Shown one piece after another: positions 765-26,525 of a stretch of DNA of 64,000 nucleotides (positions are counted from its first letter, which is position 1; each line of letters begins with the position of its first letter). Below the pieces are notes generated by a model. It saw only the letters and a program-made list of their open reading frames with translations, did not search any database and was not told the DNA's origin. The position numbers and the translations under genes were made by a program. Source of the stretch: a virus. Its lineage: Duplodnaviria; Heunggongvirae; Uroviricota; Caudoviricetes. The stretch lies in IMG/VR virus record IMGVR_UViG_3300042890_002891, positions 66,831 through 130,830 of that record; one strand, given 5' to 3'.

Positions 765-795
765 TTTTGACTCCGGTTTGTTGCTGTATGTGTGT

Positions 796-824
796 ATTAT
801 AGCATTTCGGTGAATATTAGTCAA
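796..824 (-). promoter_or_regulatory. sigma70-type early promoter TTGACT-N17-TATAAT
   Basis: Near-consensus -35/-10 with extended TG; member of a repeated promoter family. Confidence 0.8.
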
Positions 825-828
825 CCAA

Positions 829-4523: not shown

Positions 4524-4627
4524 AGATACCTTTCTGTTAAAATACTATTGTACAACTATTTACTATAGGAGTCAACTATAAAATGATATTTTTCAATTGT
4601 AAATTCCTATTACATCAATAGGTCAAG

Positions 4628-4653
4628 AAAAAGCCCACCGAAGTGGGCTGATT
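4628..4653 (-). terminator. rho-independent terminator after the tmRNA
   Basis: Identical to 3916-3941. Confidence 0.85.
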
Positions 4654-4654
4654 G

Positions 4655-4970
4655 CTATTTTTGATTACAAGGTATAACTACCTCGTTTGGCGTCAAGCGT
4701 TAGCTGCTACCAAATATTGTGAGTCATTTGCATTTCTCTTTTTTGTGTCTACGGCCGAGCTTCCCCAACCCTAACGGCTTCTACATTGCCGGACTGTCCA
4801 TTTCTGTACTCTTAACCCTGTCGAAACTATGCAGGCCCATTATAAAGAATACTACTGAATTGTGTTGGATGTTGCCATCCGCAAAAACCTGTGCAATATT
4901 CTTTATGGTGGACCTGGGGGGATTCGCACCCCCGTCCAGAATCCTTTTCTGTCTACTTCATACAGTCTTA
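4655..4970 (-). ncRNA. ssrA: circularly permuted (two-piece) tmRNA
   Basis: T-arm and CAGGUCC-A-CCA acceptor piece (ends 4906) precede a hairpin spacer and the GGGCCUG...UUCGAC coding piece (starts 4838); G3.U70 pair; tag ANDSQYLVAANA* at 4731-4693; outer ends approximate. Confidence 0.9.
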
Positions 4971-4978
4971 ACTGTTAT

Positions 4979-5863
4979 TTATTTTAATGAGTTAACTGAG
5001 TCTTCCCAGTCTTGATTGAATGTTGACATTTTTGTATCCCACTCAAACTTCATTCCACTACCTTCCCAAATTTTAGCAGTGTTTGAATTGGGATTCTGAT
5101 GTACAGCCTTCATAGCAGCCTGAATCTTGTTGCGTTGTGCATCAGTTGCGTTCTTCAAGATAAAAAGCACATAGTAGCCGACCTTGAGATTTTTGTTGGC
5201 AAGATCTTTTGCAGCCAATGGAATCAAGGCATCAGCTGACGATGGGCTCATACGATACATGCATGTGCCGTTGCCTGACTGTGCAAATTTTCTTGCCAGC
5301 TTGCTTTCAATGATACCGTAGTCAACTTCACCGTTTAGCAAAGCAGTGATAGTGCTTGGACTGCCAGCAGCAAAATGCACAGGTTTGTGAGTGGTCTTGA
5401 ATGACGCATTGATTCCGTTGTTGATGCTATTGACCATCACACTAGCAGGAATGGCATGTCCAATCCTGTACGATGATCCAGCTGTGACCATACGGGCAGC
5501 ATTCATTTCTGGTTTGGCTGAACAGATATAGTAAGAGTCATAGTGTACACGAATCAATTCTTTTTCGGTAAATGTCATTATATTGCAAGAGCCTTGTTTG
5601 CGGATACCGGCGTCTATGTCGCCTGCCCAGGGAAATAGCACAGGCATATTTTTATCTATTTTGTCAATAACAGCCGTTGCCAGGCACCCAGATCCTGGGT
5701 TGATGTAGTCAATTTTGAATTGGTTCTGCAGATCCTGGGTCAATGCACTGGTCTCCAGATAGAACCCACCTGTTTTTGAGCCAGTGTTCACAATGGTGAT
5801 GTCCTGTGCCGCAGCAGCCAAGGTCATGGTTGCAAACGCAACCAACGCTAGTAATTTCTTCAT
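4979..5863 (-). CDS. periplasmic solute-binding protein (TctC/Bug- or TAXI-like)
   Basis: Signal peptide, GSKTGG and ALLNGEVD motifs, adjacent to TctA. Confidence 0.6.
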   Translation of the reverse strand: MKKLLALVAFATMTLAAAAQDITIVNTGSKTGGFYLETSALTQDLQNQFKIDYINPGSGCLATAVIDKIDKNMPVLFPWAGDIDAGIRKQGSCNIMTFTEKELIRVHYDSYYICSAKPEMNAARMVTAGSSYRIGHAIPASVMVNSINNGINASFKTTHKPVHFAAGSPSTITALLNGEVDYGIIESKLARKFAQSGNGTCMYRMSPSSADALIPLAAKDLANKNLKVGYYVLFILKNATDAQRNKIQAAMKAVHQNPNSNTAKIWEGSGMKFEWDTKMSTFNQDWEDSVNSLK

Positions 5864-18159: not shown

Positions 18160-18195
18160 AAAAGAAAAAACCCTGGAGTTTTTAGTTCCAGGGTC
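18160..18195 (-). terminator. attenuator terminator GACCCTGGA-loop-TCCAGGGTT-TTTTCTTTT
   Basis: 9-bp stem plus U-tract; its 5' arm can alternatively pair with 18238-18253. Confidence 0.85.
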
Positions 18196-18221
18196 TTTTG
18201 AATTTGCGGATGTTAACTTAG

Positions 18222-18350
18222 TTACTCATCACACCTCTCAAGAGATCCCGGAACGCCTGGAATACTATTCATGCGACCATACGCATGTGACCAGGCGGAT
18301 ACCTGGGTAAACATGGGTTTCGTCAACAGTGAACAGAGAGTTGTTTTCAT
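18222..18350 (-). CDS. leader peptide, 42 aa (MKTTLCSLLTKPMFTQVSAWSHAYGRMNSIPGVPGSLERCDE)
   Basis: Manual translation; lies between a perfect promoter and a terminator; all 20 amino acids, 36 distinct codons. Confidence 0.7.
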   Translation of the reverse strand: MKTTLCSLLTKPMFTQVSAWSHAYGRMNSIPGVPGSLERCDE

Positions 18351-18360
18351 CTTAAATCCT

Positions 18361-18389
18361 ATTATACTTTATTTATCATTTGATGTCAA
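18361..18389 (-). promoter_or_regulatory. perfect sigma70 promoter TTGACA-N17-TATAAT with an embedded TAAATA box
   Basis: Exact consensus 10 nt upstream of the leader ATG. Confidence 0.85.
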
Positions 18390-18803: not shown

Positions 18804-19511
18804 ATGGAATACAAAACAATTTATCGTGGCAAAGAACTTCCTTTTGCGGATTATTTTGAAAGCAAAAAAGCCGGTCTGGTAGCAGAATTTCTAGCACAGT
18901 ATCCTGACTTCTCTAGCACAGAAGTGCTGAACAATTCAGAGATCATGCAAAACAAGATCACTGCCAAAATTTCTACCACCCAGGGCAGAGGCACTGCTTG
19001 GAAATTGCTACAGGTCAAAGGCAACTACTACGGTGAGCCTCCTTACTATGGTTCACAACCCTTTGAAGAATCAAAGTCGAAATTTCCAACCATGATAAGC
19101 ATCATTGATTATTTTGGATTTGATAATCTTGGCAGCGTGACCTATTCTGTACTGGAAGCCAACGGCATCATTGCCAGACACACAGGACCTGAAAATCGTG
19201 CAGGTAAATTTATTCGTTGCCACATACCTTTGATTGTACCCGAAGGTGATCTGGGTATGGAGATCAACGGAGAAGTAGTTGACTGGAGTGAATCCTTTGG
19301 ATTCAACAATCAAATCATACACAGTGTCTGGAACAACACTGATTATCGTAGACTGGTATTGATGATTGATATAAAACGCTCGTACATTGGGTTGCCTGAT
19401 GCGCCTCCGTGGACAGAAGAAACAAATGCTGATGCAGTTCCTTTTGAAAAGACTCACAACAAAGTGACATATGGCCCTCAAGAGATTATACCAGCAGTGA
19501 ACTTGAGATAA
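18804..19511 (+). CDS. aspartyl/asparaginyl beta-hydroxylase-like 2OG-Fe(II) oxygenase
   Basis: YSVL..IARHTG...RCHIPLIVP...HSVWN.T.YRRLVLMID. Confidence 0.85.
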   Translation: MEYKTIYRGKELPFADYFESKKAGLVAEFLAQYPDFSSTEVLNNSEIMQNKITAKISTTQGRGTAWKLLQVKGNYYGEPPYYGSQPFEESKSKFPTMISIIDYFGFDNLGSVTYSVLEANGIIARHTGPENRAGKFIRCHIPLIVPEGDLGMEINGEVVDWSESFGFNNQIIHSVWNNTDYRRLVLMIDIKRSYIGLPDAPPWTEETNADAVPFEKTHNKVTYGPQEIIPAVNLR

Positions 19512-19520
19512 CTCTGTAGT

Positions 19521-20198
19521 ATGAAACTCCAAACAATTTATCGTGGCAAAGAACTTCCTTTCGTGGATTTTTTTGAAAGCAAAAAAGAAGATCTCATAAA
19601 AGAATTTCTAGTACAATATCCTGAATTCCACAGTATCGAGCCGTTGCATAATTTAGACCTCTTGCAAAACAAGATCACAGGGGCATTGGGCAATAGAACC
19701 CACCCTGGATCTCCTTGGGAAATATTGCAAATCAAAGGTACTTATTTTGGCGAACCTCCATATTATGGCTCACAACCCTTTGAAGAATCAAAGGCAAAAT
19801 TTCCAACAGCAACAAGTATTATTGATTATTTTGGATTTAGTGTCGTTCGGTCAATTTCGTATTCGGTTCTGGAACCGCACAGTACCATAGCCAGACACTG
19901 GGACCATGAAAATCATGAAGGCAAATTCATACGTGTTCATGTACCCTTGATTGTGCCCCATGGTGATCTGGGCTTAGAGGTCAATGGGGAAGTGGTTGAT
20001 TGGAGTGAATCCTTTGGCTTCAACAACCTAAGATTACACAGCGCCTGGAACTTCACGGACCATCGTAGACTGATATTATTACTTGATCTAGAACGCTTGC
20101 ATCTGGGGTTGCCTGATGAGCCATCCTGGTCCGAAACAACCAATGCTGATACCGTACCCTTTCCCAAGACACCTGTTTTTTTATCAAAGCGCAATTGA
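19521..20198 (+). CDS. aspartyl/asparaginyl beta-hydroxylase-like oxygenase (tandem paralogue)
   Basis: Same motifs; highly similar to 18804-19511. Confidence 0.85.
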   Translation: MKLQTIYRGKELPFVDFFESKKEDLIKEFLVQYPEFHSIEPLHNLDLLQNKITGALGNRTHPGSPWEILQIKGTYFGEPPYYGSQPFEESKAKFPTATSIIDYFGFSVVRSISYSVLEPHSTIARHWDHENHEGKFIRVHVPLIVPHGDLGLEVNGEVVDWSESFGFNNLRLHSAWNFTDHRRLILLLDLERLHLGLPDEPSWSETTNADTVPFPKTPVFLSKRN

Positions 20199-21326: not shown

Positions 21327-21798
21327 ATATAGAAACACACTCAAAACTGCTGTTAAACCCTTGCAGGGGCATGCCTAGTTAAAAAATGTGTTCTTATATG
21401 GCTGGCAATGTTATGAGGGCTCTTACCCCATCGTTGTTTGTATAGGCTGCGCGACCTATACATCCCGGACACACTCCCTGACCCGGCAATGCTTACTTTG
21501 TGGCTCTTGCTTTCCACTTGATTCTGATCATATAGAAACACACTAGAGTTTTACGATAAACTACGCTCCTGAGTTTCTGCTCAGGACCCCATAGGTCTGC
21601 CTATGTTTCTAATGTGTTTTTATATAACAAAATAGTGAACAGGATTTGCACCTGTGCCCACAGCCTGTTGACAAGACTGCACTCTCCTACTAATCTACCA
21701 CCATATAGGAACACACTGGCACTCAATTGTCAATTGCAGAGCATAATAATTCTACGCCCTATGAGTTACGCATACTCTTCCAATGTGTTTTTATATGG
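21325..21798. repeat. three tandem hairpin elements with the conserved closing stem CATATAGRAACACACT...AATGTGTTYTTATAT
   Basis: Copies at 21325-21401, 21529-21626 and 21701-21798; further copies at 15044-15122 and 22015-22255. Confidence 0.75.
21632..21704 (-). ncRNA. degenerate tRNA-like element (TCA at the centre of the anticodon loop, no encoded CCA)
   Basis: ACAGG-TGCAAAT-CCTGT T-arm, CAGTCT/AGGCTG stem, ATGGTGG/TCACTAT acceptor. Confidence 0.45.
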
Positions 21799-21858
21799 TA
21801 TAGTAAAAACGTAATGGTTACGATTCCATTGCTACTTGATCATGTAGCCGATTTTGTT

Positions 21859-21933
21859 TGGCGCCACGGACGGGAATCGAACCCGTCTTGGTCGGATAGA
21901 CAATCCGTTGCCCTCCCAGAGAGCTACCGTGGC
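21859..21933 (-). tRNA. tRNA-Asp(GTC)
   Basis: Cloverleaf, G73, CCA. Confidence 0.9.
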
Positions 21934-21939
21934 AAAACT

Positions 21940-22014
21940 TGGTAGAGCATAGCGGAGTCGAACCGCTCTTAGTGGACTGAAAACCCACTGTCCTAACCGA
22001 TAGACGAATGCTCC
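21940..22014 (-). tRNA. tRNA-Glu(TTC)
   Basis: Cloverleaf, CCA. Confidence 0.92.
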
Positions 22015-22255
22015 ACTATATGAAAACACACTTATTCAGGAACGTGCTGATCAAACACAAGAGAGCTACTCTTGTGCCCATCCGCTGTCATTACTGTCCA
22101 CATGTTCCGCCGCTTGTCCAGATCAACTGATTTCTCAGTGAGAGCCTATTTCATGCCAGCGAGGGAGTAGCCTGCTAAGGCGGGGTTCAAACCCATAATC
22201 CTGATTCACTTGCCTAACGGTGTGGATAACCTGTATAACTGTGCTTACATATAGT
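22015..22255 (-). ncRNA. about 240-nt structured RNA closed by the conserved stem
   Basis: ACTATATG..AGCACA / TGTGTT..CATATAGT closure, internal hairpins (CACAAGAG/CTCTTGTG). Confidence 0.5.
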
Positions 22256-22351
22256 GCCCAGAACCAAATCTGGGTACACTATACAAAATCAAATTTTTAA
22301 CGAACTCTTCACACTGTGTCAATGCACTGTGCTGCTTTCTAACTAGTCTCT

Positions 22352-22480
22352 AGTATAACATGTTATGCAATACTGGTCAACCTGTTTTGCAAATGCCCCG
22401 CTGTAGTGTAGGGTCTTTGCAAAATCTGCTGTTCTCCTGTCTCTTGTGTGTATTATAGCACTAGACTGAATAAGAGTCAA
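22352..22480 (-). promoter_or_regulatory. two tandem sigma70 promoters (22452-22480 and 22352-22380)
   Basis: TTGACT-N17-TATAAT and TTGACC-N17-TATACT. Confidence 0.75.
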
Positions 22481-22487
22481 CCGCCAT

Positions 22488-22511
22488 AAAAAAACCCGCT
22501 TGCTGCGGGTC
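22488..22511 (-). terminator. attenuator terminator GACCCGC-AGCAA-GCGGGTT-TTTTT
   Basis: GC stem plus U-tract; its 5' arm overlaps the antiterminator arm CAAAGACCC. Confidence 0.85.
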
Positions 22512-22536
22512 TTTGAAGGATGCGTTTTTGATCACA

Positions 22537-22626
22537 TCAACAAAGACCCAGGCTCCCGTCACGCTCATAGGCCATCCCCGAATCAATTGTCGGTATGACT
22601 GCTGAGAGGATAGTGAGCCGGTTCAT
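22537..22626 (-). CDS. leader peptide, 29 aa (MNRLTILSAVIPTIDSGMAYERDGSLGLC)
   Basis: Leaderless ATG 6 nt after TAGACT-N17-TATACT; 26 distinct codons of 29; last codons form an antiterminator arm. Confidence 0.65.
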   Translation of the reverse strand: MNRLTILSAVIPTIDSGMAYERDGSLGLC

Positions 22627-22686
22627 AAGTGTAGTATATATGCCTTTGCGACAAAAGTCTATTATTTTGGCAAAATTTGTGGTGGT

Positions 22687-23250
22687 TTAGTCTGAGACCA
22701 CTGACCATCCTAGACGAGCAAGGTCTTCACGTATCTCATCAGTGACCATGCCCTCGCCCACATGTGCTTGGCTTTCCCGGTGGAACGTCTGCTGCTCTTG
22801 TGTGAGCATGTTCCATTCAGCCTGTTCTAGTGTGGCAGTATCCCTGATGCCTGAACAGTACCAGTCAATGTAGTCACCTTCGCCCCGCATGTTGGCCACA
22901 ATGCCACCAGCCGATCGCCATGTACAGGCCCAGGTTTGATCTTTCAGTATGGTCCACACATCTTGTTTCTGGAACGTGTTGTTGCACAGGGCAGCATAGA
23001 GATTTTGAGCATACACTCTGCTTTCGCAAACCTTGGCCACCATCCAGTCGGTGGTACGCATGTCAAATTCCATGTTGTTCTTTTGCCATTCAGCATTGAC
23101 TAGATTTTCTTCATCTCGAAGTGCCCAGCTTTCGTACATTTCAAGCATGGCCTGCACCTCAGGATCGTCGAGACTCTGGCCCGCTTCTAAACAACCTTCA
23201 ATGTACTTTTGCTTTTGAAAAGTGTGACGATCAGGACTGGCGGAAATCAT
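22687..23250 (-). CDS. conserved phage hypothetical protein
   Basis: ORF; YAQNLYAALCNN, WR.AGG..A..R..GDYIDWYCSG blocks. Confidence 0.7.
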   Translation of the reverse strand: MISASPDRHTFQKQKYIEGCLEAGQSLDDPEVQAMLEMYESWALRDEENLVNAEWQKNNMEFDMRTTDWMVAKVCESRVYAQNLYAALCNNTFQKQDVWTILKDQTWACTWRSAGGIVANMRGEGDYIDWYCSGIRDTATLEQAEWNMLTQEQQTFHRESQAHVGEGMVTDEIREDLARLGWSVVSD

Positions 23251-23501
23251 TGCAGGATTCTTGTGTGGGAACCAGATTCAATACTGTCTAGGGATTCTGC
23301 CAGTCGTTGTGCCAGTTCGGGATCAGATTCAGTCAGCTGTTCAAAATCTACTGCATGACTCGTGGCCGCAAGGTCTTCGGCTGTCATGTTCTCAAACATG
23401 CTGTGAATTTCAGCCATCAAGAGATCCAGTTCCTCTTGAGTTCCTTCAAAATCGTCAAAGCAGCCTGGGGCAAATTGCACTTTTAGTGGTTGATCAGTCA
23501 T
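23247..23501 (-). CDS. acidic hypothetical protein
   Basis: ORF, translationally coupled to the next gene. Confidence 0.6.
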   Translation of the reverse strand: MTDQPLKVQFAPGCFDDFEGTQEELDLLMAEIHSMFENMTAEDLAATSHAVDFEQLTESDPELAQRLAESLDSIESGSHTRILQ

Positions 23502-23512
23502 ATGTTCTTTCA

Positions 23513-23590
23513 TGGTGCGGTGGGCGGGATTCGAACCCGCACTGTACAGATTTTAAGTCTGTTGTCTCCTACCTATTGCACTACCACCGC
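23513..23590 (-). tRNA. tRNA-Leu(TAA), short variable region
   Basis: Cloverleaf, A73, CCA. Confidence 0.88.
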
Positions 23591-23597
23591 ATTGCTC

Positions 23598-23672
23598 TGG
23601 TCCGGCGTGACGGAATCGAACCGCCATGTACAGGGTAGAAACCTGCTATATTATCCATTATATGAACGCCAG
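23598..23672 (-). tRNA. tRNA-Arg(TCT)
   Basis: Cloverleaf, CCA. Confidence 0.88.
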
Positions 23673-23677
23673 ATACT

Positions 23678-23752
23678 TGGTGCGACTCCTTGGTTTCGAT
23701 CCAAGTACCAAGACCTTATGAGGGTCCTGCTCTCCCATTGAGCTAGAGTCGC
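23678..23752 (-). tRNA. tRNA-CAT (Met or Ile2)
   Basis: Cloverleaf, CCA, ATCG T-loop; TTGACA-N17-TACAAT promoter upstream. Confidence 0.85.
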
Positions 23753-23794
23753 TATTTTTACATTGTAACAGGAAAGTTATTTAGTGTCAACAGA

Positions 23795-23989
23795 TTATTT
23801 CACAGACAGCAACGCCTGTAGATCCTGAATTTGTTTTTGCAAACGCTCAATTTCTGCGGCTGCTTCATCCAAGAGATCAGCAATACGGTCAGTCTCACCT
23901 TGTTCCACACTTCTGCGTCCAGGAATCTGTCTGCGTATCTCGGCTCGCTTGCGTAATCGGTACACCAGACCTTGTTCTTGCAAGGTCAT
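23795..23989 (-). CDS. hypothetical coiled-coil protein
   Basis: ORF coupled to the upstream gene by an ATGA overlap. Confidence 0.6.
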   Translation of the reverse strand: MTLQEQGLVYRLRKRAEIRRQIPGRRSVEQGETDRIADLLDEAAAEIERLQKQIQDLQALLSVK

Positions 23990-24410: not shown

Positions 24411-24643
24411 GATTTCTCCAGAGTCCGTAATAGCGTTTTTTCCCGAAATGTGGCCAGGCGTTGGTCAAGTTCGGCCCTGACATCCCAGTGTTGTTTGCTG
24501 AGTCTTAAAACCCAGGCACTCAACAGGCCCAGCTGATATGCAATTTCATCTGCGTCCGTGTATTGGCCGCCACTGCTGACTGCGTTTAGCACATCAGTTA
24601 TTTCTTTGTGATTTTTTACGTGAACTTTTAGGTTGCTATACAT
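24407..24643 (-). CDS. hypothetical protein
   Basis: Coupled ORF. Confidence 0.55.
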   Translation of the reverse strand: MYSNLKVHVKNHKEITDVLNAVSSGGQYTDADEIAYQLGLLSAWVLRLSKQHWDVRAELDQRLATFREKTLLRTLEKS

Positions 24644-25097
24644 GCCATATCTCCTGGAACCCCTCTTCCAGTGTGGGTTCTTTCAAATTTTGTAACATAC
24701 TTAGCATCACATGATCCGGAATGCTTTTGCCTGGACGGCCAGCCAGTCTACGAGCAAGTTCCACAGGTTCGGGTGTGCCAAACACCACAGCAATATGTTC
24801 ATAGTCGGGCAGCATGTGAAACTTCTTTCGTCGGCTGGCCACAGTGGTTGAGGTTTGATCCCAGATCACACTGTGACCATGTTCCCGTGCAAACACCACC
24901 TGTTGAGCCATTAGATCCACTGCTCGAGGCATGTAGTCTCGAAACACTTGATTGTAGGTTTGGCCTTGTGCTCTAGCATAGTCTTCCACAAACGTGTCTG
25001 TACTAACCACAGTCAAGCCCAGGGCCCATATTTGGTTCCGGATCCAGGTGCTTTTACCCGAACCTGGCACTCCAATCATTTGATAACATTTTGGCAT
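24636..25097 (-). CDS. P-loop polynucleotide kinase-like protein (AAA_33)
   Basis: GVPGSGKSTW, STD, WDQT, R...R lid. Confidence 0.8.
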   Translation of the reverse strand: MPKCYQMIGVPGSGKSTWIRNQIWALGLTVVSTDTFVEDYARAQGQTYNQVFRDYMPRAVDLMAQQVVFAREHGHSVIWDQTSTTVASRRKKFHMLPDYEHIAVVFGTPEPVELARRLAGRPGKSIPDHVMLSMLQNLKEPTLEEGFQEIWHV

Positions 25098-25984
25098 CCT
25101 GCCTCCAGATAGTTTCTAACCCAGGCCAAGCGAGCCTGTTCGTCCATCACAGTATAAGTGTCGATGTTGTTGCGTATGTGATCCAACAGCGGGTAGTATT
25201 CCTCGTCAATCTGTTCTCGAAACTGTTGAGTCAACAACTTGTCAGTTCTTGGGTTACGTGCCACCCACTTGGCAGTCAGGTAGTAGGGTGACTTCAACTT
25301 GGAACTCACATTACCTTCATCGGTATAGAAAACAAAACCTTCGTGCTTGACAGTCTTGACTTCTTGCAATAGTTGACCCATTGAAGTGTAAAACGACTGC
25401 ACAATGCGTGTGCGAAACGCATTTTGCAACAGCATCATGATTGCAGCATTGGCCTCAATTGGACTGCACCATTCGTTCTTGCGCATGCCCAACAAGTACA
25501 TGCCTGGCTGCTCAGGAACAATGTGTGGATCACTTTCATGAACACATTCAAACATAAATGTGTGGCCTTCATACTGCTTGCAAGTGGCACGATAACGATC
25601 TATGTTGTCACCAATCATTTCACGTGCCATGTCAACATAAGGACTGTCAGTGCTACCAGTTGTGCTGATCAGTACATCATCCCGATACCATGTGCAAGCC
25701 ACCATGAAACCGTTGACCTTGCGATAAGCAGTCACATGAACATTGTCAGCCAGCACAGGTGCAGACTTTTCAATGCCGTAGTTGTAGATCTTGGTGAATG
25801 GATAAGCAACCAAGTTGAAGTCACGATCCACAATGCTTCCACGACATTCGGCAATGTATTCGTCCCAGAGGCTGTCGTAGAACACTTTCTTCTTGTACTT
25901 GAGCACGTAGATACCATCGCCACATTCTCGGCGGTTCACCAGATTGGATGATTCCACATACTGTTTTAGTTTTTCTCTAAACAT
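25076..25984 (-). CDS. T4 Rnl1-like RNA ligase
   Basis: ECRG, F.KI.N, motif I KVNG, FE, EGFV, KLKS..Y. Confidence 0.85.
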   Translation of the reverse strand: MFREKLKQYVESSNLVNRRECGDGIYVLKYKKKVFYDSLWDEYIAECRGSIVDRDFNLVAYPFTKIYNYGIEKSAPVLADNVHVTAYRKVNGFMVACTWYRDDVLISTTGSTDSPYVDMAREMIGDNIDRYRATCKQYEGHTFMFECVHESDPHIVPEQPGMYLLGMRKNEWCSPIEANAAIMMLLQNAFRTRIVQSFYTSMGQLLQEVKTVKHEGFVFYTDEGNVSSKLKSPYYLTAKWVARNPRTDKLLTQQFREQIDEEYYPLLDHIRNNIDTYTVMDEQARLAWVRNYLEAGCQNVIK

Positions 25985-26525
25985 GATGACCCTTGATCTT
26001 GCCTTTTAGGGCTTGTGCAATAGCACGTTCCATGGTGATAGCAATTGCGCCAGTGGCATCCATGCCCACGTCCAACGCACGATAATTTTCCAGGCTGCTG
26101 GTGCCACCGTGCAAGTGTCCGTGAAAATGAACAGCACCGCGATGCATCTGATCCCACTCTGCTATGGGATAATGAAACATCACTACCTTGGTTTCGTTGA
26201 ACTGTGCATCCAGGTACTTGTGTATCTGTGCAAAGCAGTCACGGAAATCCTGATCTTGCAACAGCTTGCGGTCGTGGTTGCCTTCAACCAGAATCTTGAC
26301 TCCATTCAGTCGACGCACAGTTGCCACGGCTTTTTCCGCAGGCAAGAATGCCACGTCACCCAGAATGTACACAGTGTCGTCTGCGCCAATCAAGTCGTTC
26401 CATTCTCGAATCATGGCCTCGTTCATGTAGGCCACATCGTTACGAAACCGTGCCCGTGACTCAGGGCAAAATTTCATTATGTTCTTGTGTCCCCAGTGGA
26501 GATCACTTGTGATCCAGGTTGTCAT
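25977..26525 (-). CDS. calcineurin-like metallophosphoesterase
   Basis: SDLH, LGD, GNHD, HYP, HGHLH motifs. Confidence 0.9.
   Translation of the reverse strand: MTTWITSDLHWGHKNIMKFCPESRARFRNDVAYMNEAMIREWNDLIGADDTVYILGDVAFLPAEKAVATVRRLNGVKILVEGNHDRKLLQDQDFRDCFAQIHKYLDAQFNETKVVMFHYPIAEWDQMHRGAVHFHGHLHGGTSSLENYRALDVGMDATGAIAITMERAIAQALKGKIKGHHV

Follow-up and report, generated by a model that had tools for sequence, protein, structure and literature searches.

A candidate leader-peptide attenuator travelling with tRNA-Glu and tRNA-Asp genes in a giant freshwater phage and its relatives

Introduction

In the described leader-peptide attenuators (trpL, hisL, thrL, leuL, the ilv leaders and pheL, PMC3082878), which precede amino-acid operons and pheST, a short open reading frame (ORF) precedes an intrinsic terminator whose 5' arm is shared with an alternative hairpin, the position of the ribosome selects between the two hairpins, and the control codons are cognate to the product regulated. 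An element with this layout is present in a stretch of 64,000 nucleotides (nt), hereafter the window, which covers bases 66,831-130,830 of the IMG/VR phage record IMGVR_UViG_3300042890_002891 (261,673 bp, about 75% complete by estimate). The source is a giant freshwater phage. The element, a self-contained unit of about 175 nt, is located on the minus strand between a gene of 187 amino acids (aa; 22687-23250) and the genes of tRNA-Glu(TTC) and tRNA-Asp(GTC). Our interpretation, to which we give a probability of roughly 0.6, is that it is a ribosome-mediated transcription attenuator with a leaderless leader peptide, travelling with a tRNA-Glu/(Tyr)/Asp block and sensing the decoding of Glu, Asp and Tyr codons.

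Four of the defining features of an attenuator were found in silico: a leader ORF, an intrinsic terminator, an exclusive antiterminator within reach of the ribosome, and cognate control codons. The choice of hairpin by ribosome position was reproduced in computed folds, and the mixture of Glu, Asp and Tyr codons recalls the multivalent thrL and ilv leaders. There are also differences. The phage element would regulate tRNA genes instead of biosynthetic or synthetase genes, it is carried by a phage, its ORF is predicted to be leaderless, and a constitutive promoter follows the terminator. In addition, the subfamily to which the window belongs (type A, see below) has only two competing hairpins and no 1:2 pause or anti-antiterminator pairing, and therefore an untranslated leader should read through and not be super-attenuated; a pairing resembling 1:2 is present only in some members of types B and C. 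Permissive Rfam scans of the region gave only sub-threshold matches, all through the terminator, to Trp_leader (RF00513, 23.3 bits against a threshold of 41), Leu_leader (RF00512, 17.4 against 50), isrK and RsmY; with the two leader models the terminator part alone aligned, and no membership of a described leader family was indicated.

Two other kinds of systems are comparable in part. T-box riboswitches likewise couple tRNA status to readthrough through a choice between antiterminator and terminator, but their ligand is the uncharged tRNA itself, they act independently of translation, and the genes under their control are those of synthetases or amino-acid metabolism. The Rfam scans of the leader region gave no match to a T-box, and the element found there keeps a reading frame. 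Bacterial stable-RNA operons such as rrn (P1/P2) and tyrT have tandem promoters, one regulated and one more constitutive. The phage locus resembles them in having two serial promoters ahead of stable-RNA genes, but its upstream promoter would be gated by a translated leader and a terminator, not by sensing of guanosine tetraphosphate or the initiating nucleoside triphosphate at the promoter.

The role of phage tRNAs is still debated, the main ideas being codon compensation and escape from tRNA-targeting defences (PMC10264068, PMC11555353). In full-text literature searches, whose coverage left out most subscription journals, leader-peptide attenuation was nowhere described for tRNA genes; an older report may exist. 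A first-pass annotation made from the sequence alone had read the present region as an attenuator whose leader samples many different codons and matches its own downstream tRNA set.

Results

A conserved family linked to tRNA-Glu, tRNA-Tyr and tRNA-Asp

Two pattern scans of IMG/VR, one with both arms of the antiterminator and the other with the block of -10 box and ATG, followed by definition of the family with a regular expression, identified 50 instances of the leader. These included 36 distinct sequences distributed among 11 lineages of less than 80% identity. The family was defined by patterns, and more divergent members may have been missed; most of the loci were fetched through the leader patterns. 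The full module, consisting of promoter, ATG, reading frame, both arms, terminator and a following promoter, recurs in the 36 distinct sequences of related phages, and because it is conserved it is more than a chance arrangement. The attenuator-like module with an apparently leaderless short ORF proposed in the first-pass annotation was supported.

About 600 relatives of the neighbouring 187-aa gene were present in IMG/VR, and similarity at the nucleotide level extended to the leader in only three of the 80 loci fetched. When these three were aligned, the promoter, ATG, frame, both arms and terminator were conserved, and the middle of the ORF had diverged. Distant-mode blastn of window positions 21800-23800 against the INPHARED GenBank phages produced matches on the tRNAs alone, leaving the leader uncovered, and revealed no close cultured relative.

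The sequences were divided into three subfamilies. Type A, with 21 sequences including that of the window, uses the pairing GGGTCTTTG:CAAAGACCC. In types B and C the pairing is formed by CAGCGGG and the CCCGC of the terminator arm, and that segment also has a pairing partner upstream.

ARAGORN analysis of the 6 kb past each instance gave Glu(ttc) as the first tRNA wherever the sequence sufficed, followed by Tyr(gta) and/or Asp(gtc). In loci L077 and L116 two Leu tRNAs are inserted ahead of Glu. The order past the leader in the window is Glu(TTC), Asp(GTC), Val(GAC), Gly(TCC) and Ile(TAT), the same tRNAs as had been listed earlier. On the upstream side the neighbour changes from one relative to another, being a tRNA in some, the 187-aa gene in others and different DNA elsewhere; the downstream partner is constant. 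Furthermore, a separate terminator, with hairpin and T-run, is situated immediately before the leader's own -35 box in at least nine relatives. With its own preceding terminator, variable upstream surroundings and a constant downstream partner, the unit is therefore autonomous and tied to the genes downstream, not the tail of an upstream operon.

Anatomy of the module in the window

The promoter TAGACT-N17-TATACT, the leaderless-type ATG and the 29-codon ORF noted in the first-pass annotation are all present on the minus strand, and the arm at the end of the ORF is indeed perfectly complementary to the arm overlapping the terminator (Table 1). The terminator is present as well, with the T-run read as seven Ts and not six. 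The two additional promoters reported past the terminator were both found, and both are stronger than the leader promoter.

Table 1. Positions of the leader module in the window, of the features following it, and of the members of a second leader family at other loci.
Feature	Position	Strand	Description
Leader promoter P_L	22633..22661	-	-35 TAGACT 22661-22656, 17-nt spacer, -10 TATACT 22638-22633; 9/12 match
Leader ORF, putatively leaderless, 29 codons	22537..22626	-	MNRLTILSAVIPTIDSGMAYERDGSLGLC + TGA (22539-22537); ATG 22626-22624, 6 nt past -10, without Shine-Dalgarno sequence
Extra GAT codon	22584-22582	-	upstream of the candidate control codons
Candidate control codons	22558..22569	-	TAT 22569-22567, GAG 22566-22564, CGT, GAC 22560-22558; from right-anchored codon table
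Antiterminator 5' arm (arm A)	22541..22549	-	GGGTCTTTG; covers the final sense codons ctG GGT CTT TGt; invariant or near-invariant in type A
Antiterminator inner helix	22519..22538	-	GATGTG 22538-22533 / CGCATC 22524-22519; from minimum free energy folds; contains the stop codon
Antiterminator 3' arm (arm B)	22507..22515	-	CAAAGACCC; perfect complement of arm A; GACCC common to the terminator 5' arm
Intrinsic terminator	22488..22511	-	GACCCGC (22511-22505), loop AGCAA, GCGGG (22499-22495), T7 (22494-22488)
Promoter P2	22452..22480	-	TTGACT-N17-TATAAT, TG-extended, 11/12; directly past the terminator
Promoter P3	22352..22380	-	TTGACC-N17-TATACT, 10/12; counterpart of the single post-terminator promoter in many relatives
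First downstream tRNAs	21859..22014	-	tRNA-Glu(TTC) 22014-21940, tRNA-Asp(GTC) 21933-21859
Second leader family, members	L008:11899, L009:10842, L116:8168, L122:3317, L131:5967, L141 (-):10296, L149 (-):3718, L151 (-):10049		homologous to window 18160-18389

By itself P_L is at chance level, 28 promoter-like sites having been observed against 21 expected in shuffles. In the relatives it has the form T(T/A)GACT-N17-TATA(A/C)T, and the block CATATATA(A/C)TACAC is nearly invariant. The inner helix of the antiterminator is kept in the relatives with a different sequence.

Some repeats were observed around P2. About 30 nt past it, at window 22411-22431 (minus strand), TTTTGCAAAGACCC repeats the arm-B motif CAAAGACCC (22419-22411), and this is followed by a second TTTGCAAA palindrome (approximately 22392-22385). 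Similar motifs, TTTG(C/T)AAAGACCC, are found past P2 in many relatives. Pairing of arm A with the repeat past P2 could be conceived, either in readthrough transcripts or in trans. The region of P2 (window 22480-22445) has copies of 82-86% identity at G000:C1:65100-65135 and 67619-67656 (= window 789-826), and this extended promoter sequence seems to be reused across the phage genome.

Reading frame of the leader

The short leader ORF is probably translated. Every one of the 35 distinct relatives has it open. In 34 of these 35 distinct ORFs, arm A is offset from the ATG by 2 mod 3, despite distances ranging from 20 to 28 codons. The only exception, L107, has a single-G deletion and ends at a second TAA within the loop. 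In all cases the stop codon lies inside the antiterminator hairpin, 0-4 codons past arm A. Variable sites are evenly distributed over the codon positions (13/13/16 in the main type A group), and the proportion of nonsynonymous to synonymous differences is 390:108. The C-terminal residues are entirely different between the subfamilies (GLC, SGSSGT and SGPSDI), and the RNA pairing that they encode is kept. A kept frame combined with a drifting peptide is what would be predicted for a regulatory leader, and it argues against a functional microprotein.

Throughout the family the ATG is located 5-6 nt past the conserved -10 box without a Shine-Dalgarno sequence. Of the 65 promoter-like sites in the phage's own genome, 16 are followed by an ATG or GTG 4-9 nt past the -10, and seven of these 16 open ORFs of 50-390 aa, several of them sharing the layout TATAAT-ACAC-N-ATG. 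Leaderless mRNAs thus seem to be a common feature of the phage. Such ORFs, 5-6 nt past a consensus -10 with a proper -35, were observed at G000:C1 97201 (= window 30371), 185656, 195620, 232056 and 260095 (minus strand). In alphaproteobacteria such as Caulobacter, leaderless mRNAs are frequent and efficiently translated (PMC4117421).

Folding of the leader RNA

The 142-nt leader of the window folds better than all of 200 shuffled sequences (200/200, z = -3.85), and the minimum free energy (MFE) structure of the free leader is the hairpin of arms A and B, not the terminator. Constrained folds were then computed for each lineage with an assumed ribosome footprint reaching from -15 to +12 nt of the A site. 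With the ribosome at the stop codon, the terminator formed in all the lineages tested. In type A, the antiterminator formed in the free RNA and also when the A site was placed at Tyr or at Glu, both in the full-length RNA and in RNA truncated before the 3' arm of the terminator; in these two positions the footprint stops just short of arm A. Some members of types B and C conform to a three-state classical design, in which the arm is engaged with its upstream partner as long as the RNA is free, and becomes available for the downstream pairing once a ribosome has stalled.

Pairing between the last 36 nt of the ORF and the region of the terminator 5' arm was stronger than in shuffles in 19 of 20 lineages, the exception being L139 (P=0.053). 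For the window, the duplex free energy (dG) was -16.4 against -9.3 in shuffles (P=0.008). The 20 lineages include types B and C as well as a Trp/Ala leader family and locus L123, both described below, all of which build the pairing from different sequences; the arms of the other leader families (GGGTCC.., CCGGGGTTC and GGTTTTGTGTT) are unrelated. Such apparently independent sequence solutions to the same modelled pairing are the best structural evidence obtained. Compensatory changes were detected in two pairs of the terminator stem (GC/UA 13:8 and CG/GC 18:3). RNAalifold on the type A alignment recovered the terminator alone; the ORF part aligns poorly, and the constrained folds of single sequences were used instead.

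Glu, Asp and Tyr codons before arm A

When one representative of each of the 11 lineages was included, Glu, Asp and Tyr together accounted for 44 of the 110 codons (40%) in the ten positions before arm A. Further upstream in the ORF they made up 4 of 139 codons (3%), the background in the phage proteins being 15.6% (Fisher p = 3e-14, calculated over lineages that are non-independent). They are also the three commonest residues in these ten positions. In type A the spacing is fixed: nearly all sequences place Tyr at k-6, Glu at k-5 and Asp at k-3, k being the codon in which arm A starts.

The codons of the cluster are mostly the wobble-read ones: GAG exceeds GAA by 15:4 (GAG constitutes 22% of the Glu codons in the phage genes), TAT exceeds TAC by 13:0, and GAT exceeds GAC by 10:2. 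The synonymous variants GAA, GAC and TAC do nevertheless occur. The amino acids of the cluster are those of the first downstream tRNAs, Glu-(Tyr)-Asp. The codon match to the downstream tRNAs claimed in the first-pass annotation was in this way retained for a local Tyr/Glu/Asp cluster of conserved spacing and lost for the ORF as a whole: the match of all its codons to tRNAs within 2.5 kb was at expectation in all 20 leaders tested (all p > 0.12). The matches of Val, Gly and Ile codons that had also been pointed out are not conserved features.

For the ATA codon and tRNA-Ile(TAT), six loci had both, four had ATA without the tRNA, three had neither, and none had the tRNA without ATA. These counts included the loci with at least 3.5 kb of downstream sequence, plus L107 with 1.6 kb. 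The trend is suggestive, in few and phylogenetically clustered loci, and phage-wide codon usage is a confounder.

Other leaders before tRNA genes

A general scan of all the fetched DNA for modules of promoter, ATG, short ORF, terminator and tRNA found two further kinds. The first, at L123:1999-2405, has a leaderless 30-codon ORF, MTKFNNTLPTTSIYHNCDESWSTRFCVKEK (..NCDESWSTRFC..), with Cys, Ser and Trp codons, and its end, GGTTTTGTGTT, pairs with AACACAAAACC, which overlaps the terminator. Genes of tRNA-Ser(TGA), tRNA-Trp(CCA) and tRNA-Cys(GCA) begin 5 nt past the T-run, with no promoter between. This leader is the cleanest example of the design.

The second kind is a leader family homologous to window 18160-18389 (Table 1). 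In the relatives it is leaderless (TATAAT-N6-ATG), with 36-43 codons including conserved Ala and Trp codons; the stretch ..A/P-W-S-R/H-A/G-F/Y.. is conserved, and the ORF lies about 200 nt before the tRNAs Trp(cca) and Ala(tgc). The copy in the window has AGGA 7 nt before the ATG instead of a leaderless start.

A comparable arrangement is found in the Caulobacter phage phiCbK, in which the tRNA region was located by Rfam tRNA search and compared by the arrangement of ORF, terminator and tRNAs. A 20-codon ORF, MTHLLTRYEREATGLDTTTA (..RYEREATGLD..), and an annotated terminator are situated directly before tRNA-Glu and tRNA-Asp (JX100813 48,040-48,280; L160:1240-1480). Also CbK_gp083, with 45 aa rich in Ser, Leu, Pro and Lys, is followed by a terminator before two Pro, two Lys, three Leu and two Ser tRNAs (JX100813 49,540-49,769; L160:2741-2970).

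Genomic setting

The window includes 29 tRNA genes and a permuted transfer-messenger RNA (tmRNA), all on the minus strand. The tmRNA, in two pieces, was located at window 4602-4998 (minus strand), with the tag ANDSQYLVAANA and a score of 93.9 bits with the Rfam model tmRNA_permuted; it hints at a possible alphaproteobacterial host. A tRNA-like gene at window 21631-21704 (minus strand), with an enlarged anticodon loop with GUC, scored above the Rfam threshold (35.1 bits) and received no call from ARAGORN. The 187-aa gene matched no known family.

Just upstream of the tRNA region, at window 24636-26525 (minus strand), there are three consecutive genes for an AAA_33 kinase (153 aa), an RNA ligase of the T4 Rnl1 type (302 aa) and a metallophosphoesterase (182 aa), a row that looks like a tRNA-repair module. 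Inside the tRNA region, on the opposite strand, two tandem paralogues have an Asp/Asn beta-hydroxylase domain (PF05118; window 18804-19511 and 19521-20198, plus strand).

Discussion

A model of attenuation by decoding speed

The anatomy of the module, its conservation, the kept frame, the mutually exclusive pairings and the codon cluster are established by the sequence and its comparison with relatives, and the following model is built on them. Transcription from P_L would start at or next to the ATG, and a 70S ribosome would load on the 5' end. With smooth translation to the stop, which is placed just past the arm inside the hairpin, the ribosome would cover arm A (GGGUCUUUG), leaving arm B (CAAAGACCC) free, so that the terminator with GCGGG-U7 could form and the transcript would end at 22488. 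If the ribosome lagged, arm A would be free to pair with the emerging arm B, no terminator would form, and RNA polymerase would continue into the tRNA-Glu/Asp block, the readthrough from P_L adding to the constitutive transcription from P2 and P3. The lag is placed by the model at the conserved Tyr-Glu-x-Asp codons, mostly TAT, GAG and GAT, 3-6 codons before the arm, so that the cognate tRNAs would be supplied under negative feedback. The relatives keep both the switch and the Glu/Asp/Tyr cluster, and therefore the phage probably makes more of such tRNAs when those codons are read slowly.

Several observations weigh against this interpretation. A strong promoter is present about 10 nt past the T-run in all 35 members of the Glu family, and an effect of the attenuator would therefore only be additive to basal transcription. 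The -35 box in the window, TAGACT, is weaker than the TTGACT of many relatives. The start of transcription, the translation of the ORF, the stalling, and the direction and size of the regulation are all computational predictions. The 11 lineages are homologous, so that the enrichment statistics overstate their independence. In types B and C the full-length MFE structure keeps the terminator in every state, and the switch was seen only in truncated, co-transcriptional folds and not in all members. The correlation with Tyr is mixed: two lineages, L107 and L135/149/155, without an adjacent tRNA-Tyr, have no Tyr codons, and Tyr codons are retained in the window and in type C, where tRNA-Tyr is likewise not adjacent. 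The two remaining points, free folding of type A and possible structural constraint on GAG, bear on the first of the alternatives below.

Alternative explanations

The alternative that survives best, and which we still regard as unlikely, is a generic sensor of translation rate. According to it, the leaderless ORF and the switch report only the pace of the ribosome in relation to RNA polymerase, as affected by ribosome availability or global elongation speed, and are blind to codons, the Glu/Asp/Tyr cluster being a by-product of RNA-structure constraints or of shared ancestry. The folds of type A are consistent with this, since the free RNA already favours the antiterminator, which also forms with the ribosome stalled anywhere up to about four codons before the arm. 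Lag at any such codon would then lead to readthrough, and codons at specific positions, Glu, Asp and Tyr included, are not mechanistically required. Also the conservation of GAG may be partly at the RNA level, as a CTCA further upstream is a possible partner of TGAG in some folds. Against this stand the near absence of the three amino acids from the first half of the ORF and their concentration at fixed spacing before the arm. Synonymous variants also occur at the cluster positions, and in the independent leader families the clusters consist of other codons, in agreement with the tRNAs behind them (Cys/Ser/Trp for L123 and Ala/Trp for the second family).

Slightly less probable again is that the unit is a stand-alone small gene, with an RNA of about 140 nt and/or a 29-residue peptide acting in trans, the hairpin being part of a compound terminator and the tRNAs being transcribed solely from P2 and P3. 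Both a promoter and a terminator belong to the unit, with another promoter following at once in all the relatives, and the recurrence of CAAAGACCC past P2 provides a place where the leader RNA could in principle pair. A precedent is rnTrpL/peTrpL of Sinorhizobium, an attenuator-derived RNA and peptide with functions in trans (PMC7968998). The comparison of the sequences speaks against it: substitutions are even over the codon positions and the peptide is not conserved as a protein, its C-termini differ by subfamily with the pairing of the encoded RNA intact, and the stop codon is invariably placed within the antiterminator hairpin. In addition, L123 shares the design without any promoter between its terminator and the tRNAs.

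The full codon-sampling model of the first-pass annotation, in which the leader samples maximal codon variety and the task is divided with the leader at 18160-18389 so that either one serves the anticodons of the array behind it, appears improbable. Its counts were correct for the window. The leader has 26 distinct codons among 29, which exceeds the expectation from phage codon usage (22.0, P=0.024) and less clearly the uniform one (23.2, P=0.09); the two window leaders jointly use 47 of the 61 codons (P=0.0002 against phage usage); and the peptide lacks W, H, Q, F and K. High diversity was detected also in L108 and L118, and the mean z against the uniform null was +0.64 over the 11 lineages. 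The remaining eight lineages are at expectation, however, and codon diversity was rejected as a trait of the family. The excess over phage usage, the 47 jointly used codons included, is for the most part attributable to a frame that is free of codon bias, its peptide being unselected, and the match between whole ORF and array is at chance in every lineage. Nor was the division of labour between the leaders supported, as the missing residues are a peculiarity of the window: K, H, W and Q are all present in L108, the closest relative, and F, H and W in other relatives.

An ordinary terminator of the operon of the 187-aa gene with a chance ORF in the spacer would fit the position about 180 nt past that gene and the weak -35 of the window, but this very improbable explanation is already contradicted by the comparative data, with promoter, ATG, frame and arms conserved in the 36 distinct sequences, many relatives having a separate terminator before the leader promoter, and the module lying more than 1 kb from the 187-aa gene in L004 and L008.

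Significance

A wider and more tentative hypothesis, to which we give less than even odds, is that the tRNA genes of large phages are divided into blocks, and that a leaderless mini-ORF at the head of every block uses the codons read by the tRNAs that come first after it. The phage would thereby sense a scarce tRNA and re-supply precisely that one on demand. The pattern by blocks would be Tyr/Glu/Asp before Glu-(Tyr)-Asp and, in the relatives, Ala/Trp before Trp-Ala and Cys/Ser/Trp before Ser-Trp-Cys.

If this is true, the tRNA shortage may come from host anticodon nucleases or from the codon demand of the phage itself. Phage tRNAs are known to counter tRNA-targeting defences (PMC10264068, PMC11555353), and the adjacent genes for a T4 Rnl1-like ligase, a kinase and a phosphoesterase would fit a module that senses, replaces and repairs. 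PhiCbK offers a cultured system with an analogous ORF and terminator before tRNA-Glu and tRNA-Asp. A translated leader reading the codons that its own downstream tRNAs serve would be the first known feedback on tRNA genes acting through decoding speed, and would carry leader-peptide attenuation beyond amino-acid metabolism into the translation apparatus itself.

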